64,000 nucleotides of DNA, from positions 3,030 to 67,029 of the forward strand of contig RGVZ01000001.1 of assembly GCA_010029825.1 (NCBI GenBank). Reading direction: 5' to 3'. This DNA is from a bacterium (GTDB lineage Bacteria > Bdellovibrionota_B > Oligoflexia > Oligoflexales > RGVZ01). The notes beneath the pieces are model-generated. The model was given only the letters and a program-made list of their open reading frames with translations. It searched no databases and was not told where the DNA came from. Below are positions 3,799-37,203 of this stretch, piece after piece (position 1 is the first letter of the stretch; each line of letters begins with the position of its first letter). The position numbers and the translations under genes are program-made.

Positions 3799-3835
3799 AT
3801 TTTTTTTTGATTCGCGGCCGCGGGGGTGAAGTCCC

Positions 3836-4147
3836 TTGGACTTGAAGATGGTCCACGAAAAATTGATTCGCTCGATCCAGCGCTTCGCCCAGGAGGCGAT
3901 GAATGCCCGGCAGGTTGCCCGGCGCCTTGAGTCCCTGTTGCCGCTGCGCCTGAAGGAAGTCGAGCGCCGTTTCCGTGGCGAAATTCCCGTGGCCGAGGCC
4001 CAGCGCAAAGCCTTGTGCGACAAGACTTATCTTGATTTTGTCGAGGAATATTCCGCCATCCACGGTGACGCGATCACTGGCCGGGTCCAGTACGAAACCC
4101 ACATGATGCTTTTTGAGGCACGGCGCAGCCTGCGCAAACGCGTTTGA
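3836..4147 (+). CDS. hypothetical small protein
   Basis: 103-aa ORF with protein-like composition and no competing gene. The start is uncertain (TTG 3836 or ATG 3848). Confidence 0.4.
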   Translation: MDLKMVHEKLIRSIQRFAQEAMNARQVARRLESLLPLRLKEVERRFRGEIPVAEAQRKALCDKTYLDFVEEYSAIHGDAITGRVQYETHMMLFEARRSLRKRV

Positions 4148-4242
4148 ATCCGCGCTGGCCGTGTCTCTTGCCTCGACACGACGCAAACTTCCCTGTAAAA
4201 TTGACGGGTTGAAACTCTCTTCCCATCCCGCTTCCATGGGGG

Positions 4243-9099: not shown

Positions 9100-10021
9100 T
9101 CGCGGCCTTGATGTCGTCAGAGTGGACCAGGCGGGCGTCTTTGGGGATCTGACGCTTTGCCAGGCCCGCGAGAACCTTGCCCGGGCCGATCTCGACAAAG
9201 TCGGTGCAGCCAGCCGCGACCGCGGTCTCCAACGTCTGGGTCCAGAGAACGCTGTGGTCGATCTGCTCGATGAGGTGCTGGATCTGGTAGGGGTTTTCAA
9301 TCTTGCCCGTGCGGTTCGCGATGACTTTCACTGGCGAATCGCAGAGAGGCGTGTCGCGCAGCAATGGCTCCATCGCTTCCCGCGCCTTGGTCATCAAAGA
9401 GGAATGAAACGGGGCGCTGACGGGCAGCATCACGCAGCGGGCCTTGTCAGCCTCGAGAGCCTTGACGAGGTCCTCGACGGCAGCCTTGTGTCCGGCGACG
9501 ACGAGTTGTTGCGGGCTGTTGAAATTCACGACCTCGACGACGCTGCCAGGGCGGGAAATTTCCGCTGCGCGGGCTTGCAAGGCCTCCGGGGCGACGCCCA
9601 TGACCGCGGCCATGGCACCCGTACCCGCGGGAACTGCCGCCTGCATCGCCTCGCCACGACGGCGGACCAGGAACGCGGCGCGCCCGAGGGCCAATTTGCC
9701 GGCGCCGACCAGCGCCGAGTATTCTCCGAGGCTGTGCCCCGCGAACCATTGGGCCTTGAAGCCTGCCTCCTGTTCGAGGACGAGCCATGTGGCCGCGCTG
9801 ACCGTCAGGATGCAGGGTTGGGTGTTGGCCGTGAGCTTGAGTTCTTCCTCGGGACCGTCAAGGCAGAGCTTGCGGATGTTGATCTTGGCAGCATCCTCGG
9901 CTTCCTCGAAAGCAACCTTGCAACCGGGGAACTCAGAAAGCAATTGCCGCCCCATTCCGACATACTGTGACCCCTGTCCAGGGAACATCGCCAGAGTGGT
10001 AGCGGCATTGAGTTTCGACAT
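9083..10021 (-). CDS. fabD: malonyl CoA-ACP transacylase
   Basis: Contains 'MFPGQGSQYVGMG' and 'GHSLGEYSAL'. Lies 11 nt downstream of rpmF. Confidence 0.92.
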   Translation of the reverse strand: MSKLNAATTLAMFPGQGSQYVGMGRQLLSEFPGCKVAFEEAEDAAKINIRKLCLDGPEEELKLTANTQPCILTVSAATWLVLEQEAGFKAQWFAGHSLGEYSALVGAGKLALGRAAFLVRRRGEAMQAAVPAGTGAMAAVMGVAPEALQARAAEISRPGSVVEVVNFNSPQQLVVAGHKAAVEDLVKALEADKARCVMLPVSAPFHSSLMTKAREAMEPLLRDTPLCDSPVKVIANRTGKIENPYQIQHLIEQIDHSVLWTQTLETAVAAGCTDFVEIGPGKVLAGLAKRQIPKDARLVHSDDIKAAITSLI

Positions 10022-10854: not shown

Positions 10855-11442
10855 ATGCAGCCTATGAAAGTATCGGTCAAGGACCTCAGAAAACCATCGT
10901 CTATCAGGATCCACGGCGACGAACCGTGGCTTGAGGCCATTCACACGTCATTTGCCCTCGAGGCGGACGACACCTGCGCGCCCGGAGTTGAGGATAAACC
11001 CCGACGACTCAAGGGAGAAATCCACCTTCACACGGATGCCGCGGGATGCGTTCGCGTCACGGGCCATATCGATTTCGAACCCCTCGTGCCATGTAGTCGC
11101 TGTGACCTGCGGATCCCCCTGGACGCCAGCCAGGACGTCGACGCCCTGTTCAAGCCGGAGCCGCGCGACGCGGACGACCGTCGCGAAATCAACTTGTCGG
11201 CCGATGACCTCGAGACCCGCTTCATTGAAGGGGGCAAAGTCGACCTCGAGGAACTCGTCAACGACGCGGTGCAGACGGCGATCCCTTTCCAGACCTGCCA
11301 GACCGAACCCGGCACGGACCGCTGCCTGTTCTGCAAGGCGGACTTGTCGGCGCCGCGCGTGTTCTCAACGGGTGGGGAAGGGGTCGACGAAGTGCCCGAC
11401 TCCCCGTTCGCGAAACTCGCGGAACTGAAGAAAAAGAAGTAG
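10855..11442 (+). CDS. yceD: YceD/DUF177 family protein (23S rRNA accumulation protein)
   Basis: Contains Cys pairs 'CSRCDLRIP' and 'CLFCKADL'. Has an acidic middle and the typical tail '[13 protein letters not shown]'. Confidence 0.8.
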
Positions 11443-11451
11443 TTTTAGCGC

Positions 11452-11480
11452 TTGTCAAGCGCCCTCTACCCAAGTAGATT
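11452..11480 (+). promoter_or_regulatory. candidate sigma-70 promoter for rpsB-tsf
   Basis: TTGTCA (11452-11457), a 17-nt spacer and TAGATT (11475-11480). This would give a leader of about 150 nt before rpsB. Confidence 0.4.
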
Positions 11481-11635
11481 CCCCCAGCTTTTCAGGGGTA
11501 TCGGCGTGGTGCCGGTCCCCGCGACGCGGACCGCCGCATCGAAGGTGTCCCTTCCGGAAGTGCCACGAATCCAGTGGAGGCCCGGCCGGGATCTTGCGGT
11601 GGTCGAGGACCAACCTTCGAAAAAAGGAACGAGTT

Positions 11636-12436
11636 ATGTCAGTTACCGTGAACATGAAAGACCTGCTCGAAGCAGGCGTCCACTACGGCCACCAGGCACG
11701 TCGTTGGAACCCGAAAATGAAGCCGTACATCTTCGGCGAGCGCAACGGCATCCACATCATCGACCTCCAGAAGACCGTCAAGCTGTTCCAGAACGCTTGC
11801 GACTTCCTTGAGAAGACCACCTCGCGCGGCGGACACGTCCTGTTCGTCGGCACCAAGCGCATGGCACGCGACCTCGTCGCGACCGAATCCCGTCGCGCTG
11901 GCATGTACTTCGTCAACCACCGCTGGCTTGGCGGCACGTTGACCAACTTCGCGACCATTCGCCAGAGCATCCACCGCTTGAAGCGCATTGAGAAGATGGC
12001 GATGGACGGCACGTTCGACAAGCTGCCGAAGAAAGAAGTTCTTGGCCTCCAAAACGAGCGCGAGAAGCTCGAGCGCAACATCGGCGGCATCAAGGACATG
12101 CCGGGCATGCCGCGCGCGATTTTCATCGTTGACGCGCACAAGGAAACGATCGCCCTCCTGGAAGCCAGGCGCCTTGGCATCCCGGTGGTCGCCATCGCCG
12201 ACACCAACGCCGACCCGCAGATGGTTGACTACGTCATCCCGGGCAACGACGACAGCATCAGCTCACTGAAAGTGTTCATCTCGACCGCCGCTGAGGCGTG
12301 CCTCGCAGGCAAGATGAAGTCGAAGGACAAGACCGAGATGGGCGACAAGATGGATGGTGTTCACGAAGGCAAGTTCTTCGATGACGCCGGCAATGCTGTC
12401 GCTGTCGAGAAGCGCAAGCCGTCCAAGAAGCACTGA
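11636..12436 (+). CDS. rpsB: 30S ribosomal protein S2
   Basis: Starts '[28 protein letters not shown]'. The ATG at 11636 follows AAAGGAA. Confidence 0.95.
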
Positions 12437-12481
12437 TTGTCGATCGATTACTGAAACGATTCATTACGGGAACGAATTCCG

Positions 12482-13384
12482 ATGAGCATTACCGCATCCC
12501 AAGTCAAGGAACTGCGCGAGAAGACTGGCGTCGGCATGATGGAGTGCAAGAAGGCACTCGAGGAAAATGCTGGCGACATGGAAAAGGCGATCCTCTGGTT
12601 GCGCGAGCGTGGAATGTCCCGCGCCGCGAAGAAGGCTGATCGCGTCGCCGCTGAAGGTCTTGTTGAAGTCTACGTCAATGACGACCACAACGCCGGTGTG
12701 GTTCTCGAGCTGAACTGCGAAACCGACTTTGTCAGCAAGAACGACGATTTCCGCAAGTTCGCTCATGACTGCGCCCTGATCGCGCTGAAGCACAACCTCA
12801 ACTCTGCCGACGACCTTTTGGCGGCGACGATGGCGTCTGGCGCTACCGTGAAAAACACCCTGACGGAAATGATCGCCAAGATCGGCGAGAACATGAACGT
12901 CCGTCGTTGTACCGTGGTCAAGGCCCCCAATGGCCTCGTCGCCGGTTACATCCACATGGGCGGCAAGATCGGTACCCTCGTGGCCCTCGAAGGCGGCACC
13001 AAAAATGACGCCCTTGTTGCCCTTGGCAAGGACGTCGCCATGCACGTCGCGGCGGCTTCGCCCCGTTACATGACCAGCGAAGAAGTGAACAAGTCCGAGC
13101 TCGAGCAGGAGCGCGAACTTGCCCGCAAGAAGCTGATCGAGGAAAAGAAGCCGGAAGCGATGATCGAGAAGATCCTCGAAGGGCAGATGAAGAAGTTCTA
13201 CAAGGAAGTCTGCCTTGTCGACCAGGCCTTCGTGAAGGATCCTGACATGAACGTCGCGACACTCGTCCAGAAACAGGGCGGCGGCGCGAAACTTGTGAAG
13301 TTCGTCCGGTTCCACCTGGGCGAGGGGATCGAGAAGAAGGAAACGGACTTCGCGGCAGAAGTCGCGGCCCAGTTGAAACAATAG
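12482..13384 (+). CDS. tsf: translation elongation factor Ts
   Basis: Starts '[28 protein letters not shown]'. Confidence 0.95.
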
Positions 13385-13404
13385 GTTGCGTGATTCATCA
13401 AAAG

Positions 13405-13436
13405 GGCAGATTCTCAGAAGGGAATCTGCCTTTTTT
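13405..13436 (+). terminator. rho-independent terminator/attenuator after tsf
   Basis: The stem GGCAGATTC (13405-13413) pairs with GAATCTGCC (13422-13430), followed by TTTTTT. Confidence 0.7.
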
Positions 13437-13454
13437 CTTGGGGGATTTACGCCT

Positions 13455-14180
13455 TTGAAATCTGAAACAAAGCCTGAATTCAAACGCATCATGCTCAAGC
13501 TGTCTGGTGAGATGCTGGGTGGCAAGCAGGGTTACGGGATTGACGGTGACGCCATCGAGGTAATCGCGCGCGAAGTCGCGATGGTTCGTGAGATGGGAAT
13601 TGAAGTCGCGATTGTCATCGGTGGTGGCAATATTTTTCGCGGCAGCATCGCGTCGAAGTGGGGCATGGACCGCGCGTCGGCGGACTACATGGGAATGCTC
13701 GCGACCGTCATCAATGGATTGGCCCTGCAGGCCATTCTCGAGAACAAGTTTCACCTGCAAACCCGCGTCATGACAGCCATCACGATGACCGAGCTCGCGG
13801 AGCCGTACATCCGTCGACGGGCGATCAAGCACCTTGAGAGCGGACGCATCGTCATATTCGCGGGCGGCACCGGCAACCCGTTGTTCACAACGGACACCGC
13901 CGCCAGCCTGCGCGCCCGTGAGATTGGCGCGGAGATCATTCTGAAGGCGACCAAGGTTGACGGCATTTACGATAGTGATCCAGCCAAGAACCCGGCAGCC
14001 AAGAAGTTCGACACGCTGACGTACCTGGATGTCATCCAGAAGAAACTGGACGTCATGGACGCCACCGCGATTACCATGTGCATGGAGGCCAGCCTGCCGA
14101 TCCATGTATTCAAGATGGGTGAAGAGGGTTGCGTGAAACGCGCTGTGTCGGGTGTCAAAATGGGAACCATTGTGCGCTGA
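13455..14180 (+). CDS. pyrH: UMP kinase
   Basis: Contains '[18 protein letters not shown]...' and 'GGGNIFRG'. A TTG start at 13455 is chosen because ORF positions upstream overlap the tsf terminator. ATG 13490 is the alternative. Confidence 0.88.
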
Positions 14181-14215
14181 GGCGCGCGAATGGCGAATAG
14201 TGAGGAAGGACTAGA

Positions 14216-14773
14216 ATGTCAGCTGATGTGATCAACCAGTGCAAACAGGCGATGGACAAGCGTATCAAGGGTTTCGAGAATGAGTTGAAGCTCGTCCGCA
14301 CGGGGCGCGCTTCCATCACCATCCTCGATCCTGTTCGTGTCGATTACTACGGGACGCCGACCCCGTTGAACCAGGTCGCGACGCTCACGACGCCAGATGC
14401 GCGGACGATCGTGATCGCTCCGTTCGAAAAACGCCTCATCCAGGATATCGAACGCTCCATCCAGATAGCGGACATTGGTGTCCAGCCGACCAACGATGGC
14501 AACGTCGTTCGCTTGCCGTTTCCCGCACTGACGGAAGAACGCCGCAAGGACATCGTGAAGAACCTCAAGAAAGTCGCCGAGGAATCGCGGGTCAGTATCC
14601 GCAACATCCGCCGCGACATCAACGAGGACATCAAGAAGAAAGAAAAGAACAAGGAAGTCAGCGAGGACGACAGCCGCAAGTTGCAGGCAGACGTCCAGAA
14701 ACTCACCGACCAGTACATCAAGTTGGTCGACGACAAGTTGGCCGCCAAAGAAAAAGAAGTGATGACGATTTGA
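14216..14773 (+). CDS. frr: ribosome recycling factor
   Basis: Contains 'MDKRIKGFENELKLVRTGRASITILD...'. Confidence 0.95.
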   Translation: MSADVINQCKQAMDKRIKGFENELKLVRTGRASITILDPVRVDYYGTPTPLNQVATLTTPDARTIVIAPFEKRLIQDIERSIQIADIGVQPTNDGNVVRLPFPALTEERRKDIVKNLKKVAEESRVSIRNIRRDINEDIKKKEKNKEVSEDDSRKLQADVQKLTDQYIKLVDDKLAAKEKEVMTI

Positions 14774-14968
14774 GAGAGGATTCTTCGGCCTGCGGCCTCA
14801 GAATGACGAGTCGGGCCCAGAGTGACGGGGAGAGGATTCTTCGGCCTGCGGCCTCAGAATGACGAGTCGGGCCCAGAGTGACGAGTCGGGCCCAGAGTGA
14901 CGAGGACGTCCCCGTCATTCTGAGCCCGAAACCCGTCATTCTGAGCCCGAAGGGCGAAGAATCCTTTC
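14774..14968. repeat. hairpin-repeat array, locus 1: two 56-bp tandem units, extra 19-bp sub-repeats and inverted copies
   Basis: 'GAGAGGA' unit starts fall at 14774 and 14830. Forward hairpin core is ATTCT-TC-GGCC-TGC-GGCC-TC-AGAAT (14780-14804). Reverse-orientation core is ATTCT-GA-GCCC-GAA-GGGC-GA-AGAAT (14938-14962). The array begins 1 nt after the frr stop. Confidence 0.85.
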
Positions 14969-14996
14969 TTCACCCCGCGCGTTTCACGCATTCAGA

Positions 14997-15518
14997 TCAG
15001 ATGTTGAACGAAGCCCCGATCGTCGCGAAGACGCTGTCCCTTTGCAGGGGCGCGTTGAACTTCCCGCCATCCGGCAGGCGCGACGCGTAACCGGTGCCAA
15101 TCAAAGCGCCGAAGTTTTCAGTCACCGGCACCACGAAATTCAGGCGACCCATGACAGTCCACCAGGCCCTCGCGTTGGCCAGCGTTGAGGTCGACTCAGC
15201 GTCGATCGTGCCACGAAGCAACGAGAGTCCGCCTGCCACCGAAAGTTTTCCGGGGATGATCTCGCGGTTGGCGTGCCAGTGGCCGCCCGCCTCGACTGCC
15301 CGGGCGTCGGGTTTGCTCAAGGAACCCTCCGAGTTCTGGTACTCGCGGATCCCCGCGGTCAGGCCGACGCTGGTTCCGGATCCGAGTGCGTATCCGGCGT
15401 CGATCGTTGTCGTCACCTGGTCTTGGCCCAGCAGTGAGACATCCAAGGTTGCGGCGACTGCCGGTGAGGCGGTTGTCGCGAGAATCGTGGCCCCGAAGAT
15501 GACATTTGCGATTTTCAT
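14997..15518 (-). CDS. small outer-membrane beta-barrel protein (OmpW/OmpA-barrel-like)
   Basis: The ATG at 15518 follows AAGGGAG. Has a signal peptide (MKIANVIFGATILATTASPAVA) and an alternating Gly/aromatic beta-strand pattern, about 173 aa in total. Confidence 0.6.
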   Translation of the reverse strand: MKIANVIFGATILATTASPAVAATLDVSLLGQDQVTTTIDAGYALGSGTSVGLTAGIREYQNSEGSLSKPDARAVEAGGHWHANREIIPGKLSVAGGLSLLRGTIDAESTSTLANARAWWTVMGRLNFVVPVTENFGALIGTGYASRLPDGGKFNAPLQRDSVFATIGASFNI

Positions 15519-15553
15519 GTGAACTCCCTTCTTTGTGTTACGTTTGAATATGT

Positions 15554-16588
15554 TCAAGGAAAAATAGCGTGACAAGCAATTCGCGCGAAGTGGATGCCGC
15601 CTCCCGCGCCCATGGCCGCACCAGCCGCTGTGCCCCAAGGTCCGCCCTTCGAGCCTTGAGCGGCCCCGTAAGCTGCCACACCGGCAGCCACCATTGGCAC
15701 GCAGTTGTCGAAATCAGACACCATTCCTGAGCCTTTAGCCGAGACGGCGATTGAGTTTGCCGTGTTCATGAGAGCTTTCTCCATGGCTGGCAACGGGTTC
15801 AGATCGGACAGGTCGGGAAGTTTCGGCATTTCGATTCTGGGCGGTTTCCAGCCACCCCAGGCCTCGAAGGAGACATTCGCTTGCGACAGTCTCGTACGCA
15901 GGCGCAGGTCCGTGTCGAGAGGCATGGCAAGGTTCATTTTCGCGTCATGGGTGGTGCCCAGATGGATGCCCACGGCCTTTTTGCCAATGGCCACCACGGA
16001 TCCACTCATGCCTTTGATCGTGTCGGCAGTGTACTCGATCAGTTGGTGCGACTTGTTGATCTGTGCGGCACCGAAACTCGTGGTGACGGGTTGACCAACA
16101 CCCCCGGTGCCGACGACCCGGACTTCCACGAGGGATTCACCGGATTTCGGAACCCCAGCGGAGATTTCGTAGTGGCTGTCAAATGGCACGGATGTGATCA
16201 GGCCGACGACATCTGTGGATTCGTCAATGAACGAGATCGTCGCGATGCGGGATTCTTTTCCGGCATTGGTGACAAAACGCGCGTCGATCAACTTCTCAAA
16301 TGCGGAATTAACGCAATGGGCCGTCGTCAGGACGCGGTCAGTGTCGTAAAGGAAGCCGTTGCAGGACGGGCCGCCAGGAATCTGGACCAGGCCGGTCGCT
16401 TGCATGTCAAAATCGTCTGCCTTGAATACGCGTTGATCTTCTCCGACGATCGATGCTTGTTGCGCCCCGGTTCCCCGGAGACAGGCGGTCATTGTCATCG
16501 GGATCATCAGGGTCATCAGCAGTTTCGTCAACGGAGCCCATCCCCGGTGTCGACATGCCCGAACGATCACTGTTTTCTTGCCAACCAT
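15554..16588 (-). CDS. trypsin-like (S1 family) serine protease lipoprotein with Gly/Ala-rich glycine-zipper C-terminus
   Basis: The ATG at 16588 follows GAGAGGTG. Has a lipobox-like 'MTMTAC'. His motif 'VLTTAHCV', Asp candidate 'STDVVGL' and Ser motif 'KGMSGSVV' are present. The tail reads 'VAAGVAAYGAAQGSKGGPWGTAAGAAMGAGGG'. Confidence 0.72.
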   Translation of the reverse strand: MVGKKTVIVRACRHRGWAPLTKLLMTLMIPMTMTACLRGTGAQQASIVGEDQRVFKADDFDMQATGLVQIPGGPSCNGFLYDTDRVLTTAHCVNSAFEKLIDARFVTNAGKESRIATISFIDESTDVVGLITSVPFDSHYEISAGVPKSGESLVEVRVVGTGGVGQPVTTSFGAAQINKSHQLIEYTADTIKGMSGSVVAIGKKAVGIHLGTTHDAKMNLAMPLDTDLRLRTRLSQANVSFEAWGGWKPPRIEMPKLPDLSDLNPLPAMEKALMNTANSIAVSAKGSGMVSDFDNCVPMVAAGVAAYGAAQGSKGGPWGTAAGAAMGAGGGIHFARIACHAIFP

Positions 16589-16636
16589 TCTGCACCTCTC
16601 TTTGTTAAGCCCGTTCAATTGGGCGCAGATGCGTAT

Positions 16637-16653
16637 GAGCAACCGGCGTGCCG
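16637..16653 (-). promoter_or_regulatory. sigma-54 (-24/-12) promoter upstream of the protease gene
   Basis: The minus strand reads cGGCACGccggTTGCTc, with GG-N10-GC spacing exact. The -12 element lies about 50 nt upstream of ATG 16588. Confidence 0.6.
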
Positions 16654-16791
16654 CGGACGAGCTTGCCAAAGAGAATATTTAGTTAAGTGATTTCAGTATG
16701 TTGGCTTGATTGACGTCTGAAGTGCCGGGGTCCTGGTCGATCGCTGGACCGGGGTCTGGCCGCCCGTGGCCCGAAGATGCGGCCAAGGGAA

Positions 16792-16947
16792 GAGAGGATC
16801 CTTCCTCTTCGCTGCGCTCAGAGTCAGGATGACGGGGGAGAAGATCCTTCGCTCCGCTCAGGATGACGGGGCTCAGGATGACGGGGGAGAGGATCCTTCC
16901 TCTTCGCTGCGCTCAGAGTCAGGATGACGGGGCTCAGGATGACGGGG
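16792..16947. repeat. hairpin-repeat array, locus 2 (about 95-bp unit duplicated, three full hairpin cores)
   Basis: 'GAGAGGATCCTTCCTCTTCGCTGCGCTCAGAGTCAGGATGACGGGG' occurs at 16792 and 16887. The variant 'GAGAAGATCCTTCGCTCCGCTCAGGATGACGGGG' is at 16838, and 'CTCAGGATGACGGGG' appears twice. The array ends exactly at the stop codon of the sigma-54 activator. Confidence 0.85.
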
Positions 16948-18117
16948 TCAGAGTTCCTGAGCCGGGGCGTTCAGCGGGGCGAGGCCGCGCTTCTTGATGC
17001 GCTCGACCAGGGTCGTGCGGTTGAGCCCCAGTAATTTCGCCGCCTGGTTCTTGTTGTGTCCCGTGCGTTCGAGGGCCTGCAGGATCATTGAGTTCTCGAG
17101 GTCCTCAATGAACTTGATAAGGTCAATCCCTTCCCTCGGGAGCTCGCCAAAGCTTGCCGGTACGACCGGCTTTGGGGCCTCGACCGGGCGAACGGCGAGC
17201 GGCATCGTCGCGTTGGACACCACTTGCGGGATCACGCAGGCGGGCGCGGCATGGTTCAATTCGGGGGGCAGGTCGTCGCGCGAAATTTCGCCGCCGCCTT
17301 TCAGGACGACCAGGCGCTCGATCATGTTCTGCAACTGGCGGACGTTGCCAGGCCATTCGAAAGCGCACAGCACCTGCATGGCTTCTTCGCCGAGGCTCGA
17401 GAATGTCTCGCAACCGTGCATGCGATTGGAGAGGTCGAGGAAATGATCGACCAGTTCCGGAATGTCCTCATTGCGCTCGCGCAGGGCCGGCAGGGTCACC
17501 GGGAGGACGTTCAGCCGGTAGAACAGGTCAAGCCGGAATGTCCCGGCCTTGACGGCCCTCTCAAGGTCGATATTGGTGGCGGCGACAATGCGGATGTCGG
17601 CGTCGCGGCTCTCGTTGCCACCCAGCGGGGTGAACTTCTTCTCTTGCAGGACACGGAGGAGCTTCGCCTGGAGCGCCAGTGGCATGTCGCCGATCTCGTC
17701 CAGGAACAGCGTTCCGCCTGAGGCCGCGTCAAAACGCCCAAGGCGCCGACGGTCGGCGCCTGTGAAGGCGCCCCTCTCGTGACCGAACAATTCGGACTCC
17801 AGGAGGTTCTCCGGGATCGCCGAGCAGTTGATTGCAATAAAGGGATGGCTGGAACGGGGCGAAAGCCGGTGAATGGCCGACGCGATGAGTTCCTTGCCAG
17901 TGCCCGACTCCCCGGAGATCAAGACGGCGCTTTCTGAATGGGCGATCTTGGCCACGGTCTCAAGGGCCTTGAGCATGGCCGGACTGCGTCCAATGATCTC
18001 GGGGAAGAGGGTTTCCCAGTCCCCTGTTTGAAGTCCTGGTCGGCCCTTGCCCCGGAAGAGCATGGACTGGGCGCGGGAAGAATCCTCTCCTGGGCGTCGA
18101 ATCTCAGGGGTATTCAT
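16948..18117 (-). CDS. sigma-54-dependent transcriptional activator (bEBP) lacking an N-terminal sensory domain
   Basis: Has Walker A 'GESGTGKE', 'ESELFGHERGAFTGA' and a C-terminal Fis-type HTH 'QAAKLLGLNRTTLVERIKK'. Only about 55 aa precede the AAA+ core. The ORF can extend by at most 18 codons, to 18171. Confidence 0.9.
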   Translation of the reverse strand: MNTPEIRRPGEDSSRAQSMLFRGKGRPGLQTGDWETLFPEIIGRSPAMLKALETVAKIAHSESAVLISGESGTGKELIASAIHRLSPRSSHPFIAINCSAIPENLLESELFGHERGAFTGADRRRLGRFDAASGGTLFLDEIGDMPLALQAKLLRVLQEKKFTPLGGNESRDADIRIVAATNIDLERAVKAGTFRLDLFYRLNVLPVTLPALRERNEDIPELVDHFLDLSNRMHGCETFSSLGEEAMQVLCAFEWPGNVRQLQNMIERLVVLKGGGEISRDDLPPELNHAAPACVIPQVVSNATMPLAVRPVEAPKPVVPASFGELPREGIDLIKFIEDLENSMILQALERTGHNKNQAAKLLGLNRTTLVERIKKRGLAPLNAPAQEL

Positions 18118-18186: not shown

Positions 18187-18300
18187 CCGGCAAATTCCCT
18201 GGTGACCCGGCGGCCCAAGCCCCATCTGATCTCTGTGTTGTTCGCGTAAATACAGAATAACAAAATTTGCCGGCCCCGTGCAAACTTCGCCCGGCAAATT
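18187..18300. promoter_or_regulatory. 10-bp repeated motif CCGGCAAATT (two direct copies and one inverted) in a divergent intergenic region
   Basis: CCGGCAAATT lies at 18187-18196 and 18291-18300. Its reverse complement AATTTGCCGG lies at 18264-18273. The last two form a perfect 10-bp inverted repeat with a 17-nt spacer. Confidence 0.35.
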
Positions 18301-18386
18301 CTTCCACCTCAAGGGTTTCACGGATTTTGTCCCTGTGCTGGAACAGGGGCAAGACTTCATGATATGACAAGCGAAAACGGGGTTTG

Positions 18387-19508
18387 ATGGTGAAAGTTGC
18401 ATTTGTCCATGACTGGCTGGTGACTTGCCGTGGCGGCGAAAAAGTGCTTGAGGCTTTGTTGCCCCTTTTTCCGGACGCGCCGGTCTTCACCCTCTTCTAC
18501 GATCCGGCCGCGATGCCGGAAAGCATTCGCTCAAGAAACGTTTTTTTTCCTGCCGGCCTGAACCGTCTGCGCCCTTTGCGAAAGGCGTTGCTTCCGTTCT
18601 TGCCAGCAGCGATCGAGTCGCTGCCGCTGTTTGAATTCGACTTGTTGATCAGCACATCTTCTTGTGTCGCGAAAGGAGCTCTGCCAGGACCTCTCGCGAG
18701 TCACTTGTGTTACATCCACTCGCCGATGCGTTACGTCTGGGACCAACGCGACGAGTATGTTGATCGCCTGCCGCGCATTCCAGGATTGAGGACAGTGATC
18801 AACCGTTTGTCCGCGGACCTTCGCCAGTGGGATGTTGTGTCCGCGAAACGGGTCGACCAATTTGTCGCCAACTCCAGATTCGTCCAGCAACGTGTACGTC
18901 GTTTCTACGGCCGCGACGCGGCGGTGGTTTATCCACCAGTCGATGTGGAGCGGTTCGTGAAGCAGGCTCAGGGGCGTCGTTACCAAACTGGTGCCAGGCA
19001 GGGCGATTACTATCTCGTGGCGGGCGCGGCGGTCTCCTACAAGAGGTTTGACTTGGCGGTGGACGCTTGCCGCAAGCTCGGGCGCAAACTGGTGATCGCA
19101 GGAGACGGTCCTGAATGGCAATCGTTGCGAAAACGCGCTGGCGCCGGTGTTGAATTTGTCCGCAGGCCCGATGACGCAACCTGGGAATCGTTGATGGGAG
19201 GCGCTCGCGCGCTTCTATTCCCGGGCGTCGAGGATTTTGGCATCACCGGAGTCGAGGCCCTGGCGGCAGGAACGCCAGTGATCGCCCAACGCGCGGGCGG
19301 GGCGTTGGATTTCATTGAGGAAGGATCCAGCGGCCTTTACTTTGATCGTCCGGAAGTCGACGATGTGGTCACCGCGATCAAGGGTTTCGAGGCGACCTTC
19401 GAGGTCCGCCCGGAGGTTCTGGAGTCACAGGCACGGAAATTCTCGACGGCCTCCTTCCAGAATGCGATGAAACAGGAAATTGACCAGTTGATGCGAAGCC
19501 GGCCATGA
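18387..19508 (+). CDS. glycosyltransferase family 4 (GT-B fold)
   Basis: Contains 'VKVAFVHDWLVTCRGGEKVLEALLPLFPDAPVFTL' and the C-terminal 'EDFGITGVEALAAGTPVIA'. Confidence 0.85.
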   Translation: MVKVAFVHDWLVTCRGGEKVLEALLPLFPDAPVFTLFYDPAAMPESIRSRNVFFPAGLNRLRPLRKALLPFLPAAIESLPLFEFDLLISTSSCVAKGALPGPLASHLCYIHSPMRYVWDQRDEYVDRLPRIPGLRTVINRLSADLRQWDVVSAKRVDQFVANSRFVQQRVRRFYGRDAAVVYPPVDVERFVKQAQGRRYQTGARQGDYYLVAGAAVSYKRFDLAVDACRKLGRKLVIAGDGPEWQSLRKRAGAGVEFVRRPDDATWESLMGGARALLFPGVEDFGITGVEALAAGTPVIAQRAGGALDFIEEGSSGLYFDRPEVDDVVTAIKGFEATFEVRPEVLESQARKFSTASFQNAMKQEIDQLMRSRP

Positions 19509-20863
19509 ACCAGAAGCAAAAACAACTCGTCCGGATCGTCAGGTTGACTTTCGACATGGCCGCCGTGGTCATGGCGTGGATTGCGGCCTACCAATTGAGA
19601 TTTGCCCTGATCGAAACGCCCAAAGGTGTTCCGCCGTTCGGTTTGTATTTGAAGCTGGTGCCGTTCATTGTGGTGATCTGGGCAGCCATTTTTTTCGCCA
19701 GTGGTTTTTACCGGCGTTCGCAAGCGCGCCGTTCCGCGGTGCTGGAGGCCCTCGACATCATCCCTTCATGTGGGCTGGCAACGCTGGCTCTCGTGGCGTT
19801 TACCTACTTCTACGAGGAATATCGTTATTCGCGGATCGTGATGATCATGTTCGCGGCATTGCAGCCGGTGTTCCTGATCACGGCGCGGTCCGCGATGCGA
19901 AAGTTGTTCCGGTGGTACCGCCGCAAGAGTCCGGCGCGCAATGTTTTGCTGGTCACGACCAAGGGCCTGGAGCGGCAGGCAATCGCCGCCACGGATGAGA
20001 TGGACCTGGTGCGGTCGCGGGTGGTGGGGACGGTTTTCGTGGATGAGGCCGCTCCGGCGGACTGGTTGGAACTGGTGGCACGCATGGAAGTTCACGCGAT
20101 GATCGTGGCCTTGCCGTACCGGTTGTTGGGGGTCCTCGAGGACCAGCTCGCGGGCATTGCCGACCAGGTACCGGACATCCGTATCATTCCTGACATGAGC
20201 CGGTTCACGCGGTTTGCCTCGGGGATAGCGCTGGTGGACGGGCGGCCTGTGATCAGCATCAACGAATCGCCGTTGGCAGGCATGGGACGGTTGATCAAGC
20301 GCTCGGTCGATATCCTCGGGGCTCTGGTGGGGTTGGTCTTGTTTGCCCCGGTGATGGCTGTCATCGCGATCCTCGTTCCATTGTCCTCGCCTGGGCCGGT
20401 CCTGTACCGGCAAGAACGGATGGGACTTGACGGGAATAGCTTCTGGATCCTGAAATTCCGGTCAATGCCGGTTGATGCCGAGAGGAAGACGGGCGCCGTC
20501 TGGGCGAAGCCAACCGACAACCGGGCGACTTGGCTGGGGCGCCTGCTGCGTGGTAGCAGTCTGGATGAGCTGCCTCAGTTCTGGAACGTCCTCCGCGGTG
20601 ATATGAGCTTGGTCGGGCCAAGGCCGGAACGTCCCGTATTTGTTGATCAATTCAGGCGTGAGATCCCCGGGTACATGTTGCGGCACAAGGTTAAGGCCGG
20701 AATTACCGGGTGGGCCCAGGTGAATGGCTGGCGGGGCGACACGAGCCTGGAAAAGCGCATCGAATGCGACCTGTTTTACATCCAGAACTGGAGTGTCTGG
20801 CTGGACCTGAGGATCATTTTCCTTACTGTTTTCAGGGGCTTCCTGAGCAAAAACGCCTACTGA
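19505..20863 (+). CDS. polyprenyl glycosylphosphotransferase (WcaJ/WbaP-like sugar transferase)
   Basis: ATGA overlap with the GT4 gene. Has N-terminal TM segments. Bac_transf motifs 'SLDELPQFWNVLRGDMSLVGPRPERP' and 'GITGWAQVNG' are present. Confidence 0.9.
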   Translation: MNQKQKQLVRIVRLTFDMAAVVMAWIAAYQLRFALIETPKGVPPFGLYLKLVPFIVVIWAAIFFASGFYRRSQARRSAVLEALDIIPSCGLATLALVAFTYFYEEYRYSRIVMIMFAALQPVFLITARSAMRKLFRWYRRKSPARNVLLVTTKGLERQAIAATDEMDLVRSRVVGTVFVDEAAPADWLELVARMEVHAMIVALPYRLLGVLEDQLAGIADQVPDIRIIPDMSRFTRFASGIALVDGRPVISINESPLAGMGRLIKRSVDILGALVGLVLFAPVMAVIAILVPLSSPGPVLYRQERMGLDGNSFWILKFRSMPVDAERKTGAVWAKPTDNRATWLGRLLRGSSLDELPQFWNVLRGDMSLVGPRPERPVFVDQFRREIPGYMLRHKVKAGITGWAQVNGWRGDTSLEKRIECDLFYIQNWSVWLDLRIIFLTVFRGFLSKNAY

Positions 20864-20875
20864 ATCAATTTTAAT

Positions 20876-20900
20876 GATTCTATGTAATTCTAATAGAATC
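20876..20900 (+). terminator. AT-rich hairpin after the sugar transferase gene (possible terminator)
   Basis: GATTCTAT (20876-20883) pairs with ATAGAATC (20893-20900) around a 9-nt loop. There is no clear T-tract. Confidence 0.3.
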
Positions 20901-20902
20901 TG

Positions 20903-20930
20903 TTGACTTATTAAAAACAATATTATAACT
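20903..20930 (+). promoter_or_regulatory. candidate sigma-70 promoter in the AT-rich gap
   Basis: TTGACT lies at 20903-20908, followed 15-16 nt later by TATAAC/ATAACT (20924-20930). Confidence 0.35.
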
Positions 20931-21024
20931 TAACTATTGTCAGGGGTCAGTCTACTTGGTGGCTGACTCCCGACGATCAGGCTGTTTTCTGCTGTCGCTG
21001 TTGTTTTTTGCTGAAGCTGTCGTT

Positions 21025-21606
21025 GTGAGGTTGCCTGTGCTGAGTACCCGTGTCTCGATCCGACTCGCCTTTGTCGCGTTCCTGCTCACGTCCTGCGGAA
21101 TGCCGACCAATGAAAAAAGTGTGAAGAACTTTGTCCTGTCTTGCATGAACTGCGACAGCAGCCTGCATGATGGTTTCAGCCGGATTGTGCACCAATACAA
21201 CTCCGAGGCCGGGTTTGAGGCGTTGCAGTACACCACCAATTCCGAGGACGCGAACAGTCCGGTCTATCTGACCCAGGGGCTTAACATGCGCGAGGGCAAA
21301 GTGGGGTGGGGGCAATGGCTGTCCGAGACCGAGGAGCGTCGCAGTTACTTGCCGCAGCCGAAGGCCCTTCGCACGGTCAGTTATTCGATGCGCCTTGAAC
21401 TCGACAAGGACTTCATGCAGACGCGGATCAATTCCATCCGCGAGAGTGACAAGACGGATGTTCGCAAGCTGTTCTATCACGAGACCGGCCATGGACTGCA
21501 GATGGCGCATCATCCGGATCCGGGCAACGTGATGTACTTCGATATCAGTGGGGACAAGGACTTCAACTTGTACTTCAACGATGTTCGCGCGTTTTTTGGC
21601 AAGTAG
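21025..21606 (+). CDS. matrixin-like (metzincin) zinc metalloprotease lipoprotein
   Basis: 'HETGHGLQMAHHPDPGNVMYF' aligns with the MMP motif HExGHxLGLxHSxDPxALMxP. The lipobox is 'FLLTSC'. The start is ambiguous (GTG 21025, TTG 21031 or GTG 21037). Confidence 0.68.
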   Translation: MRLPVLSTRVSIRLAFVAFLLTSCGMPTNEKSVKNFVLSCMNCDSSLHDGFSRIVHQYNSEAGFEALQYTTNSEDANSPVYLTQGLNMREGKVGWGQWLSETEERRSYLPQPKALRTVSYSMRLELDKDFMQTRINSIRESDKTDVRKLFYHETGHGLQMAHHPDPGNVMYFDISGDKDFNLYFNDVRAFFGK

Positions 21607-21609
21607 CGT

Positions 21610-21757
21610 GGGAGAGGATCCTTCGCCTTCGGCTCAGGATGACGGGGGGAGAGGATCCTTCGCCTTCGGCTCAGGATGACGGGGGGAGAGGATCCTTCCC
21701 CTTCGGCTCAGGATGACGGGGGGAGAGGATCCTTCGCCTTCGGCTCAGGATGACGGT
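21610..21757. repeat. hairpin-repeat array, locus 3: four 37-bp tandem units
   Basis: 'GAGAGGATCCTTCGCCTTCGGCTCAGGATGACGGGGG' starts at 21612, 21649, 21686 and 21723 (period 37). The hairpin core is ATCCT-TC-GCC-TTC-GGC-TC-AGGAT, e.g. 21618-21640. It is followed by a GACGGTTGATGT doublet. Confidence 0.9.
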
Positions 21758-21790
21758 TGATGTGACGGTTGATGTTTGCCTGGAGTTCAG

Positions 21791-23242
21791 ATGATGTTGT
21801 TGAAACAAAAAAAAGCCGGCGCCGCGCGCGTATTGATCCTCGTGGCCCTGGCCACGGTCAACCCGGCCTGCGGAAGTTCCGGCGGGGCAGGCAGTCCGCC
21901 CGCGGACACGGTCAATGATAACCAGGCCATCCAGCCCGTGGTGGAAGTCCCGGTGATGCGATCCATCCCGGCTTCGCACGGGATTTCGATGCAGCTCTTG
22001 TCAGAGCGGGCTGATCGCATCAATCCGAAACTTGTATACGCCTTTCAGGGCAAGGGCACAGCGTTGACCTGGGATATCGGTGTGACAAGAGCCGCTTACG
22101 AGCGGATCCCGATGTTGCGCGGTGAGGCCAACGCACAGGGCATGGCTGCCGGTGATGTGGTCTTGACCGGGAACAGCAGCGGGTCTGTCCTGGCCGCGTG
22201 GTTCAGTTGTCGCGGGATCACCGCGGATTCCATCAAAGGCGCGGAAACAATCATGAGCGGATTTCCCGCGCAGCTGGTGAAAGAAGACCCCGCCGCGAAA
22301 TTCCAGGAAGTCCTGGGCGCCATCAACAGTGGCAAGGAGTTCGGTTCGCCGACATCAGACATCTTGCCCCTTGTGGACGCGATCGTCGGGAATGGCGCAT
22401 GTGTTCCGCGCTTGCCGACTGTAATCCTGGCGTCAAACCAGGACATCAATGACAACCGCCGCTGGCTCTTCACGGAGGGACGGCGCTCGCGCAGTTTCGA
22501 CATAACGGATTTCTCGTATTCGCAGCGTACGGGTGATTTCAGCCTTGAGAAGGAAAAAGTCGGAAAGATCTGCACCTACTTCGCTGACCCGGTGATGTTC
22601 CGCTATTTGTCTGAAAACATGACCGGGGAAGAAAGGCTGTGCGACATTCGCGTCATGGAAAACGCGGATGACATGAGGACAGCGGTTCTGGCCAGCATCT
22701 CCGAGCCGACCTATTTCGTGCCGGTCGAGGAGAAGGCCGAATCAAAGCTCGTGCGTTTCGACGCGCCCGGGGCCATCAAGAGTCACCGGTTTTACAATGG
22801 TGGTTTCTCGATGCCGGGCATCGTCCAGGACATCAAGCGCCTTTTCCCGGCGGCACGTGCCATGGGGACGGGGCGTTGGACTTACAACCAGGCCGAGGTT
22901 GCCGTCATGTACAGCTGGTACGACGTCAACTTGAATAGCCTTCAGGAACAATCGCGCTGGTGGATGGACCTTGAGCCGGTACCTACCGACACCCAGCGTT
23001 CAAGGTTGCTGGCGCGTCCGGCAGGTTTACAAGGGGCCGATCTCGCCGCGCGTTACCAGGAAGAGATCAACCTTGGGTACCAGCGGGCAACGGCCTGCCT
23101 GCAGCCCGGTAAAGCCTGCCTGTCGCCGCGGACGTCGATCTTCGGGCGCGACCCGAACAAGCCGGCGTTCACGAGACCTGCCGGGCAACCCGGCGGTGCC
23201 GAGATCCCAACCCGTCAGGGGCTGGACATGTTCCTTCAATAA
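21791..23242 (+). CDS. patatin-like phospholipase-domain lipoprotein (Asn at the expected catalytic Asp)
   Basis: The ATG at 21791 follows TGGAG. The lipobox is 'TVNPAC'. Motifs present are 'FQGKGTAL' (oxyanion-like), 'GNSSG' (GxSxG), 'ASISEP' (ASxxxP) and 'YNGGF' in place of DGG. Confidence 0.6.
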   Translation: MMLLKQKKAGAARVLILVALATVNPACGSSGGAGSPPADTVNDNQAIQPVVEVPVMRSIPASHGISMQLLSERADRINPKLVYAFQGKGTALTWDIGVTRAAYERIPMLRGEANAQGMAAGDVVLTGNSSGSVLAAWFSCRGITADSIKGAETIMSGFPAQLVKEDPAAKFQEVLGAINSGKEFGSPTSDILPLVDAIVGNGACVPRLPTVILASNQDINDNRRWLFTEGRRSRSFDITDFSYSQRTGDFSLEKEKVGKICTYFADPVMFRYLSENMTGEERLCDIRVMENADDMRTAVLASISEPTYFVPVEEKAESKLVRFDAPGAIKSHRFYNGGFSMPGIVQDIKRLFPAARAMGTGRWTYNQAEVAVMYSWYDVNLNSLQEQSRWWMDLEPVPTDTQRSRLLARPAGLQGADLAARYQEEINLGYQRATACLQPGKACLSPRTSIFGRDPNKPAFTRPAGQPGGAEIPTRQGLDMFLQ

Positions 23243-23257
23243 GGCTGGTCCATGATT

Positions 23258-23283
23258 GCCCCCCGGAAACGGGGGCTTTTTTT
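23258..23283. terminator. rho-independent terminator between convergent genes
   Basis: GCCCCC-cggaaac-GGGGGC (23258-23276) is followed by TTTTTTT (23277-23283). Confidence 0.75.
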
Positions 23284-24541
23284 ATGGGCAGTAGTGATGG
23301 CTGAATTTTTGTTCCAGCCACGCGCAGGGGTTGGCGCGAAGCTGGGGCGGGCCATACGGGGAAGTCGCCTCATAGGTGAAGCACCAGCCGGCAGATCGCT
23401 GGACCATGAAAACGCTGTGATCTGAAGTCGTCAGGATGCAACCTGGTCGTATCGCGTGATCAGGATCCTCCCGCAGCCCGTGATCAGCGAGCATTTTCCC
23501 CCAACATTCAACGCACATGTCATCGACGAATACGCCCGCGTCAAAGGGACGGGGTGGGGCCATATTCGCCGAGTCCGCCGAGTCCGCCGCGTGACAAGTC
23601 TCCACCCAAAGTTTGGCGGTGCCGCAATCCGTTGGCGCGCAGTCGCTGTGTTTCATGTTGATCAGGATACCGCCTGGCCGCAGGTCCATCGCGGAAACTG
23701 GCTTGTCGGAATTGTCCGCCAGGAATTGACGAGCGGCCGGACCACAGACGGATTCGTCCGACGTCCGCGCGAATTCGACTTTCTGAAGGCGCAGGTCAGC
23801 CAGAAGGTCGCCCGCGGCGGCCTGCGCGGTGCCATGGCAATTCGGCATCCCGAAGGTGATTCGCGCGGAGGACTGGTTGCCAGTCATTTCAATGACGAAA
23901 GGGTTGTTCCACGCGAGGTTTGTGTTGGATGGATCCTTGACCTTGTGGATGCGCTGGATGCCGGGATGGCAGAACCTCGAGGTGGCCCGGTTTCCGGAAT
24001 TCATTCCATTGGCATCAAGGGGACAGGCCTGACGTACAAAACAACCGTCGGGATCCATGGCTGTCAGGTCTGAACAATCCGGTGACTGCATTTCGGAAAC
24101 CGAATCAGAGATCAGTTGACGCGCCTGCGCCACGTCCGGGAACGCGCGGCACCGTGTCGTCATGTCCTGGCCGTAGCGAACGACAAGTCCCGTGGTCAGG
24201 CGCTCGAGGCAGGCCGTATTTTTGTCGTCGCCTTCAGCGAAATCCCGCGGCCAGTTCTGCCTGACGCGATTTTCGACGAGCAGGTGCCAGCGCTTGGCGA
24301 TGGTCTGGTCTTCGACGCATCGACCGAGATTTTTTATGGAGTCGGCCAAGGCGGCGCGGTCTTCACCGTAGTAATCGAACTTGCAGGCTTGCCTGAGGGC
24401 GTCAGACGTTTCCAGTGACCAGAGATCTGCCGCGGAGCGGCCGGGGTCAGAGGTCGTCCGGCAGCCGGCCAGGGTTGTCACAGAGGCGACAACGATGGCT
24501 GCCGGAACGACCAAGGTTCTTGCGCGGTCAGTAAGCCGCAT
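23282..24541 (-). CDS. Cys-rich lipoprotein, function unknown (possible papain-fold Cys/His hydrolase)
   Basis: The ATG at 24541 overlaps the ald 3' end by 14 nt. The lipobox is 'TLAGC'. The protein contains more than 20 cysteines, with 'PNCHGTAQ' and '[16 protein letters not shown]' as a candidate Cys/His pair. Confidence 0.55.
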
Positions 24542-25628
24542 GCGGGATGTTGAGCGCGTCTGCAACGGCCTTGTGCGTCAATTTGCCATTGAAGCTGTTG
24601 AGCCCTTTGCGCAGCGGTTCGGATTCATCGAGCGCACGGGCGAGGCCCTTGTTGGCCAGTTCGAGCGCGTATTTTATCGTGACGTTGGTCAAGGCGTAGG
24701 TTGAGGTCTTCGGCACATCGCCCGGGATGTTGGTGACGCCGTAGTGGAGGACGCCTTCTTCCTTGAACACCGGATCATCGTGCGTGGTCGGACGGATGGT
24801 CTCAACGCAACCGCCCTGGTCAATCGCGACGTCAACGATGGCGGAATCCGGTTCCATCGTGCGGACCATCTCACGGCTGACGAGGCACGGTGCCTTCGCG
24901 CCGGTGATGAGTACCGCGCCGACGAGGAGATCGGATTCACGCACGGCTTTCGCGATGTTCTCCGGGTTGGACATCAAGGTTTGGACGTTGTTGCCGAAGA
25001 TGTCGTCAAGGTACGCGAGACGGGCCGGATTGACGTCCAGCATCGTGACTTGCGCGCCAAGACCGATGGCCATCTTCGCCGAGTTGATGCCCACCACGCC
25101 GCCACCGATGATCGCGACGCGACCGCGAGCGACTCCCGGCACGCCGCCAAGCAGCAGGCCTTTTCCACCGTTGTGCTTCTGCAGGCACTGGGCGCCGACC
25201 TGAACAGCCATGCGGCCGGCGACTTCACTCATCGGAGTGAGGAGCGGCAGCGAACCGTTGGCGAGCTCGATGGTTTCATAGGCGATCGCGGTGACTTTGC
25301 GTTCGAGGAGCGCTTTGGCAAGTTCCGGAACTGCGGCAAGGTGAAGGTACGTGTAAAGGATCTGGCCCGCGCGCATGCGGGAATATTCTTCCGGGATCGG
25401 TTCCTTCACTTTCATGATCATCTCGGCTTCGTCCCAAACTTGTTTGGCCGCGTTGATGATGGTCGCGCCCGCGGCCACGTAACGCGCGTCAGGAATTCCC
25501 GCGCCGAGGCCCGCGCCTTTCTCAATGATCACTTTGTGGCCGGCGGCGACGAGCACCTCGACACCACCAGGGACGACTGCAACACGATTCTCGCGATTCT
25601 TGATTTCCTTTGGAATTCCGATCAGCAT
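24528..25628 (-). CDS. ald: alanine dehydrogenase
   Basis: Contains '[23 protein letters not shown]' and the NAD fold '[14 protein letters not shown]'. Confidence 0.93.
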
Positions 25629-33544: not shown

Positions 33545-33670
<126 letters not shown>

Positions 33671-37113: not shown

Positions 37114-37203
37114 GGAGAGATGGCCGAGTGGTTGAAGGCGCACGCCTGGAACGCGTGTAGGGTGTAACAGCCCTCGTGGGTTCGAATCCCACTCTCTCCG
37201 CCA
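37114..37203 (+). tRNA. tRNA-Ser (anticodon GGA), CCA encoded
   Basis: Cloverleaf read by hand. The acceptor GGAGAGA pairs with TCTCTCC. The anticodon stem is CACGC/GCGTG with loop CTGGAAC. Has a long variable arm (AGGG...CCCT) and a T-arm GTGGG-TTCGAAT-CCCAC. Confidence 0.9.

Follow-up and report, generated by a model that had tools for sequence, protein, structure and literature searches.

A probable sigma-54 promoter, conserved among relatives, upstream of a protease operon beside a short sensor-less activator in an Oligoflexales chromosome

The region described here lies within a 64-kb stretch of an Oligoflexales chromosome (uncultured Bdellovibrionota, class Oligoflexia), referred to throughout as the window, and comprises, on the minus strand, the gene for a short activator of sigma-54-dependent transcription, or bacterial enhancer-binding protein (bEBP), followed by two genes that encode a predicted lipoprotein serine protease and a small secreted protein. 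The protease operon is preceded by a -24/-12 element that is very probably a functional sigma-54 promoter. The explanation that best accounts for the arrangement, and which we regard as probable if some way short of secure, is that a sigma-54-transcribed envelope cassette has been inserted beside an ancient short activator and is driven by it. From an upstream palindrome and an AT-rich box the cassette extends through the promoter to the genes for the protease and the small protein, the whole being what appears to be a clade-restricted insertion in a variable chromosomal slot that separates frr from the 3' end of the activator gene. The comparison draws on 112 fetched loci, among which L001, L002, L003, L111 and the short L004 carry the cassette; DNA for the slot occupied by the activator comes from L104-L109, and the slot was also seen in L112 and in the contigs of P0031 and P0087. 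Homologues were sought in a database of 5.8 billion proteins (as clusters), by profile search of 1.84 billion cluster representatives, and by scans of genomes and metagenomes. The open reading frames (ORFs), motifs and promoter listed in a first-pass annotation of this DNA were all recovered where it had placed them, and the elements of the cassette region are as follows.

16767..16785, minus strand: 19-bp palindrome TGGCCGCATCTTCGGGCCA (TGGC-N11-GCCA), with its centre about 125 nt ahead of the -24 GG
16678..16696, minus strand: AT-rich box CTGAAATCACTTAACTAAA with conserved columns, about 30-45 nt further upstream of the promoter
16638..16653, minus strand: sigma-54 -24/-12 promoter CGGCACGCCGGTTGCT, predicted transcription start near 16627
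16606..16627, minus strand: stem-loop at the predicted mRNA 5' end (GCGCCC...GGGC), the outer pairs of which could reach or occlude the GAGAGG ribosome-binding site
15554..16588, minus strand: lipoprotein trypsin-fold (PA clan) serine protease, 344 aa, Pfam Trypsin_2 and Trypsin
14997..15518, minus strand: orphan secreted protein, 173 aa, signal peptide ending AVA|AT, no Cys

The near-consensus promoter proposed by the first-pass annotation, cGGCACGccggTTGCTc, is located exactly at 16653..16637 on the minus strand, with the protease ATG at 16588, 51 nt downstream of the GC, and it is conserved in orthologous loci. Its core, GGCACGCCGGTTGCT (16652..16638), is the only exact GGCAC-N5-TTGCW in the 64-kb window, where it is intergenic and correctly oriented, and no other site that retains both the GG and the GC comes within one mismatch of the 16-mer consensus, to which it has itself a single mismatch. 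Considered alone the match is within chance expectation, the observed count of one standing against 0.32 expected and at least one match arising in 28 of 100 shuffled sequences. It is the conservation across orthologous loci that makes the promoter very probably real: 12 of its 16 columns are invariant over four diverged orthologous loci, as against 23% of the upstream flank, and the positions that vary are the first base, one core base and two spacer bases. The -24 part reads TGGCAC in the more distant loci L002, L003 and L004. In the intergenic spaces neither a sigma-70-like promoter nor an intrinsic terminator was found. The operon is proposed, from its sequence, to depend on sigma-54.

Further upstream, the pattern TGGCYnnAnnTTnnnGCCA, which occurs exactly once in the window, is invariant in the window, L001, L002 and L003, including L002, in which the upstream gene is a different one. 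Among the 112 loci it is present in every cassette locus that spans the position (L004 is too short to do so) and in one other, the unrelated secDF locus L099, where it falls within coding sequence. A distance of about 125 nt upstream of the -24 GG is the usual place for an enhancer, and the palindrome is a candidate upstream activating sequence (UAS) to which an activator may bind. In L002 three unrelated genes lie between the activator and the palindrome, and since this insertion leaves the unit from the palindrome to the small-protein gene intact, the palindrome appears to mark the upstream edge of the functional unit. The AT-rich box between palindrome and promoter is a possible DNA-bending (IHF/HU-like) site, differing from the IHF consensus by 1-3 mismatches as judged by eye. 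In the stem-loop at the predicted 5' end of the transcript, RNAalifold on four sequences gives 13 pairs, of which 2 show compensatory changes, a weak signal of a conserved structure. This layout resembles that of canonical enhancer-dependent sigma-54 promoters such as glnAp2, nifH and pspA in its GG/GC spacing, its upstream palindrome, its AT-rich box and the adjoining activator gene; it differs in that TGGC-N11-GCCA is not a known UAS, the match to IHF is approximate, and the promoter is known here from sequence.

The cassette is confined to few relatives. Both of its protein families are tiny and co-occur, with four clusters each in the 5.8-billion-protein database (100, 81, 59 and 58% identity for the protease; 97, 87, 74 and 73% for the small protein), and genome and metagenome scans with the protease returned the known relative plus one contig, 98% identical, only. 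Gene order is constant across four lineages, namely protease, a 35-nt spacer, small protein and a convergent frr, which bears out the earlier view of the protease and small-protein genes as a unit. Synteny of all three genes in relatives, set beforehand as the test on which the first-pass proposal could fall, was also found: the activator lies directly upstream of the cassette in the window, L001, L111 and L003 (the L003 contig starts with its last codons, QEL-stop), and in L002, where three opposite-strand genes intervene, it is at most 4.5 kb away. The earlier notion of a self-contained sigma-54 module therefore survives in part, as a two-gene unit with a conserved promoter; self-containment of all three genes does not, given that activators of 56-84% identity mostly occur without the protease. 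The L002 insertion itself (2539-5652 of that locus) encodes a 1037-aa glyoxal-oxidase-like protein and two small unannotated genes.

For the protease, Pfam Trypsin_2 scores 31.4 bits against a cutoff of 27.6, the triad His91/Asp126/Ser195 is invariant in all four homologues, and in alignment with glutamyl endopeptidase 1P3C the His motif (TTAHCV) and the Ser motif (GMSGS) fall on the catalytic residues of that enzyme, so that by triad and Pfam the protein classes as a PA-clan (S1-like) serine protease with a predicted chymotrypsin fold. The signal peptide carries a lipobox (MTAC, MTAC, LSAC and MTAC in the four homologues) with an invariant Cys36, a pattern by which the protein is predicted to be a bacterial lipoprotein. 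The motifs are shared with the V8/glutamyl-endopeptidase-like S1 proteases (Trypsin_2, 1P3C), to which similarity is very weak (E=2e-3 to PDB); unlike these, the window protease has a lipoprotein signal and a C-terminal extension of about 100 aa of an unmatched family. The extension ends in a glycine-rich helical tail with invariant Cys296 and Cys339, and conservation within the protein is highest in the last 50 or so residues (NCVPMVAAGVAAYGAA.GSKGGPWG.AAGAA.GAGGG.HFA.IAC.A.FP), the tail (15554-15700, residues about 295-344) being nearly identical between homologues that are 58% identical overall. Its helices are also the only confidently modelled part of the AF2 prediction (pLDDT 70-82), which has a mean pLDDT of 39 and falls below 50 over the protease domain. 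The tail has no match among known families, and the predicted hairpin is equally compatible with a membrane anchor and an oligomerisation zipper.

The ORF of the small protein is genuine, being kept at 73-97% identity in relatives. It has no match in Pfam, NCBIfam or PDB, and the profile search of 1.84 billion representatives recovered its own cluster only. A beta-moment scan finds beta-amphipathic segments along the mature part and an alternating hydrophobic C-terminus, ATIGASFNI, which ends in Ile and not Phe. The AF2 model has a pLDDT of 30; because the alignments hold only 4-5 sequences, the models of both proteins are too poor for fold searches. Thus, of the earlier description of a trypsin-like protease and a small outer-membrane protein, the protease (by Trypsin_2) and the small ORF hold good, and the outer-membrane label, for which a signal peptide and a beta pattern are the sole grounds, is a tentative one.

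The activator gene and the elements upstream of it are these.

16948..18117, minus strand: short sigma-54 activator (bEBP), 389 aa, with an N-terminal tail, AAA+ core, lid, variable linker and Fis-type helix-turn-helix (HTH)
18254..18300, minus strand: probable sigma-70 promoter of the activator gene, from its sequence TTGCAC, 18 nt, TGT-TATTCT extended -10
18264..18300, minus strand: palindrome AATTTGCCGG-N17-CCGGCAAATT overlapping the activator promoter, with a third half-site at 18187..18196
18384-21606, divergent from the activator: GT4/WcaJ operon, kept in every family member examined, down to 57% identity

The start of the activator at MNTPEI is supported by orthologue gene calls (it is the called start in a relative) and by a GGAGG kept about 12 nt upstream in five diverged loci. 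Pfam assigns Sigma54_activat to residues 41-207 (7.6e-73), AAA_lid_14 to 213-292 and HTH_8 to 337-376, and the motif ESELFGH is present, as are GESGTGKE, FLDEIGD and GAFTGA, which do not vary among 24 members of the family. By domain content, an AAA+ sigma-54 interaction domain with Walker A, Walker B and GAFTGA, the protein is a bEBP, the only one in the window. Earlier described as having no sensor domain, it indeed has in that position just a 40-residue tail: residues 1-40 have no Pfam domain in the scan of the full protein, the first 43 residues scanned alone against Pfam at E<=10 gave nothing, and the longest possible ORF begins at TTG 18171. bEBPs without a signal-recognition domain form group Ic, represented by PspF, HrpR/HrpS and LafK (Francke et al., 2011; PMC3162934). 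The window activator falls within this group as judged by its domains, sharing with its members an AAA+ core, a C-terminal HTH_8 and the lack of any receiver, GAF, PAS or V4R domain in front.

No NCBIfam equivalog cutoff was reached, and the activator is not an orthologue of PspF: TIGR02974 scores 298 bits against a cutoff of 443.55, and identity to E. coli PspF is 42%. PspF has about 6 residues before the AAA+ core where the window activator has its conserved tail, and the pspF gene is divergent from pspABC where the window activator is divergent from the GT4/WcaJ operon. The closest solved structure is the AAA+/HTH region of FleQ (297 bits, residues 36-380 against FleQ 143-483), which ranks in PDB above ZraR, NifA, NtrC and PspF; FleQ/FlrA (Pseudomonas aeruginosa FleQ, PDB 8P53, 5EXX) is thus the best-scoring solved relative over AAA+ and HTH, and JGI labels some family members 'flagellar transcriptional regulator A'. 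Assignment to FleQ/FlrA nevertheless fails, as there is no N-terminal FleQ/REC-like domain, no FleN-like gene was found among the ORFs scanned, and FleQ Arg144, Arg185 and Asn186, which we take to be the c-di-GMP contacts, are replaced by Pro, Ser and Ala. No fleN/flhG or flagellar genes were found in the window, the conserved neighbours of the activator being GT4/WcaJ and frr. An 'LFRG' in the activator tail was considered as the FleQ LFRS motif and rejected, since the aligned position differs and it is not kept across the family.

Activators that lack regulatory domains, such as PspF and HrpR/HrpS, are intrinsically active and are held by anti-activators in trans, and Trp56 of PspF is the residue to which PspA docks. 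Extending this scheme to the window activator, as was done initially, amounts to analogy: the Trp56 position is Ser in the window protein and Ser or Ala across its family, and the FleQ-site residues are replaced as noted. The accompanying observation that no anti-activator candidate is visible nearby was borne out, in that no pspA-, hrpV-, hrpR- or MinD/FleN-like partner gene was found among the larger window ORFs scanned.

The activator belongs to a large, Oligoflexia-wide family of short bEBPs, of 56-100% identity and 380-425 aa, which is older than the cassette. A search of the 5.8 billion proteins gave thousands of matches, the best 120 of which are 354-463 aa long and cover 73-100% of the query (for the most part at least 88%) at 55-100% identity, none of them having an N-terminal Pfam domain. 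In a 24-member alignment the tail has 35-45 residues and a loose motif, M..s..R...d..aqs.LL followed by W...FPEIIGRS, the linker is variable, and the HTH and C-terminus are almost invariant (NKNQAAKLLGLNRTTLVERIKKR.L.PLN.PskEL). The scan of species-representative genomes with the activator returned generic bEBPs only, at no more than 54% identity, and was uninformative on synteny; it was through protein-cluster look-ups that a conserved slot came to light. Members at 84, 76, 59, 64, 59 (an Oligoflexus sp. metagenome-assembled genome, MAG) and 57% identity occupy an identical slot, in which a GT4 glycosyltransferase and a WcaJ-type sugar transferase are divergent from the activator and the activator is transcribed towards frr-pyrH-tsf-rpsB-yceD or towards inserted cargo. 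The WcaJ-type undecaprenyl-phosphate glucose phosphotransferase passes its curated cutoff (437 against 410.75 bits), and the divergent operon in most loci also has a protein of about 200 aa, weakly matrixin-like in the window and L112. No protease is present in L104, L106 and L112, where activator and frr are 1 to 41 nt apart; the cargo found in further lineages is an amidase, a 729-aa protein, or a 422-aa protein with a PDZ protein. Most slot orthologues (L104-L109, L112 and the contigs of P0031 and P0087) lack the cassette, and the activator therefore predates it and must have other targets.

Searches of the L104-L109 DNA for sigma-54 sites gave in-coding matches only, a conserved one in fabD and one in the peptidase M16 gene of L107. 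A sigma-54 promoter for the divergent GT4/WcaJ operon was sought in the window and in the orthologous loci with DNA, and none was found; the block at 18254..18300 is better read as a sigma-70 extended -10 promoter. Together with its overlapping palindrome this block is the best-conserved part of the activator/GT4 intergenic region in six loci, and its sequence points to sigma-70-dependent expression subject to an operator, which would set how much activator is made. The fabD match has a counterpart in the window at 9939-9954 (minus strand), where TGGGGCGGCAATTGCT, within a fabD-like gene, fits the sigma-54 pattern and recurs in five related loci; its place inside coding sequence makes the encoded protein the simplest explanation of its conservation.

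A mechanism that would join these elements can be outlined. The protease, lipid-anchored and with a glycine-zipper-like tail, and the orphan secreted beta-rich protein would be transcribed as one operon from the sigma-54 promoter, and the activator gene would be expressed from its own sigma-70-type promoter. Hexamers of the neighbouring activator would bind the palindrome, about 150 nt upstream of the predicted transcription start, and, looping to the closed sigma-54 complex, would open it using ATP. Lacking a sensor domain, the activator would receive its input either through its own abundance, set at the operator-like palindrome at its promoter, or through a partner in trans not encoded nearby. 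On this view the protease cassette would be a recent addition to a regulon with its core elsewhere in the genome. That the activator acts on this promoter is plausible in view of their adjacency and of the footprint shared by four sequences, and the role given to the palindrome and the locations given to the two proteins are those that their sequences suggest.

Several observations weigh against this scheme. The palindrome of the cassette is unlike the one in the activator's own promoter region, and its footprint, drawn from four independent sequences only, could be that of a terminator remnant or of a site for another factor. The activator is 96% (L001) and 89% (L002) identical where the protease is 78-81% and 59% identical; being older and better conserved than the cassette, it would have its main targets elsewhere, and the adjacency of the two could be an accident of a recombination-prone slot. 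In L108, where other genes follow the activator, there is no sigma-54 site downstream of it. There is no RpoN box in the 64-kb window, and it is from the strong purifying selection on the activator GAFTGA that we infer rpoN in the same genome. As to the envelope, the small protein is possibly an 8-stranded outer-membrane barrel, for which an outer-membrane location is a reasonable guess. In a rival account the promoter is real and a bEBP from elsewhere in the genome drives it, the neighbour being a housekeeping-type regulator (of flagellar or envelope polysaccharide functions, for example) that the cassette adjoins through recombination. Such an account is somewhat unlikely, though the likeliest of the alternatives, and it fits the many relatives in which the activator lacks the cassette, the slot cargo that varies by lineage from nothing to an amidase, a 729-aa protein or a 422-aa protein with a PDZ protein, the three genes that part activator and cassette in L002, the REP-like repeats that flank the cassette, and the difference between the two palindromes. 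Against it, the cassette is adjacent to the activator or within 4.5 kb of it in 4 of the 4 lineages that have the cassette, the neighbour is the sole bEBP in 64 kb, and enhancer-dependent promoters commonly adjoin the gene of their activator.

Doubt about the promoter itself leads to a different account, in which GGCAC-N5-TTGCT is some other operator or belongs to an RNA element, and transcription of the operon starts at a sigma-70 promoter or runs on from the activator gene. One match per 64 kb is indeed not rare by chance, as the shuffled sequences show; the conserved positions, however, are those of the sigma-54 consensus and the distant loci are nearer to that consensus (TGGCAC), the intergenic region yielded no sigma-70-like promoter, L002 keeps the element though it has no co-directional gene upstream for read-through, and the palindrome and AT-rich box stand at canonical distances. 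This account is very improbable. Slighter still is the chance that the operon encodes something akin to a toxin or bacteriocin, in which the protease would give up its C-terminal peptide as a membrane-active agent and the small protein would serve as immunity or export partner. The C-terminal 50 residues are the most conserved and recall class II bacteriocins in composition, yet Bacteriocin_IIc, the sole Pfam hit for the tail, is far short of significance at E=0.77 and was rejected as compositional. Moreover, no double-glycine leader, ABC exporter or immunity-type membrane protein was found nearby, the tail forms one chain with a lipoprotein protease whose triad is intact, and a helical hairpin fits an anchor or a zipper equally. 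Transcription of the cassette from a sigma-54 promoter under the adjacent activator remains the preferred explanation.

On that explanation the locus is a fairly ordinary case of sigma-54 control of envelope proteins, within known sigma-54 principles. Sigma-54 has been proposed as a general controller of the bacterial exterior (Francke et al., 2011; PMC3162934). The locus fits this theme in the Bdellovibrionota (class Oligoflexia), for which literature searches turned up no described sigma-54 regulon and, for the Oligoflexia, nothing on sigma-54. None of the three novel parts, namely the family of short activators, the glycine-rich tail of the protease and the small orphan protein, has been characterised. 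The outcome is a testable unit with defined candidate enhancer, bend and promoter elements, and the synteny shows a route by which a clade-specific envelope cassette attaches to an old, conserved activator. A bolder proposal, speculative and on present evidence unlikely, is that the short activator represents an uncharacterised Oligoflexia-wide sensor-less class, controlled through its tail or an unlinked partner in a manner unlike PspA/PspF, HrpV/HrpS and FleN/FleQ, which one freshwater clade would have put in charge of an orphan surface system, made up of a lipoprotein protease with a glycine zipper as its tail and of a small barrel of a new type, perhaps serving predation or envelope remodelling.

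The borders of the cassette are occupied by repetitive elements, which recur further along the window.

16792..16947, no strand assigned: REP-like repeat cluster (CCCGTCATCCTGAGC...GCGAAG..GGATCC) immediately following the activator stop codon, with counterparts at this place in L001, L003 and L111
14774..14970, no strand assigned: long palindromes of the REP-like type, separating frr from the small-protein gene convergent with it, and found here in L001, L002 and L003 too
21633..21755: third REP-like cluster

The core of the element, GTCATYCTGAG...GCGAAGRATCC, has 13 copies in the window against 0.8 expected and is also found in L104; REP-like elements stand at both borders of the cassette and at the insertion point in L002. 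The clusters probably act as terminators, the palindromes at 14774..14970 being a probable bidirectional terminator as well as the other border of the cassette, and the repeats at 16792..16947 possibly a terminator or insulator and a recombination-prone site.

The protease region adjoins the frr end of a housekeeping cluster (yceD, rpsB, tsf, pyrH, frr) at 10855..14773 on the plus strand, and GC content across the region is even. Elsewhere in the window a fused SecDF (911 aa, 33683-36418, minus strand) is 95% identical to that of one uncultured MAG and 85-87% identical to those of MAGs labelled Oligoflexales, Pseudobacteriovorax or, in one case, only Pseudomonadota; identity to other Oligoflexales/Bdellovibrionota is about 47-57%. 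It is on these SecDF relatives that the assignment of the window to an Oligoflexales chromosome is based. Two large ORFs at 21776-23242 (plus strand) and 23282-24565 (minus strand), of 488 and 427 aa, have no Pfam or NCBIfam match; unannotated proteins of 482 aa (L104) and 477 aa (L106) sit where the window has the 488-aa ORF, the correspondence being by position only. A small SRP RNA lies at 33558-33654 (minus strand), and one tRNA gene is present at 37114-37200 (plus strand).

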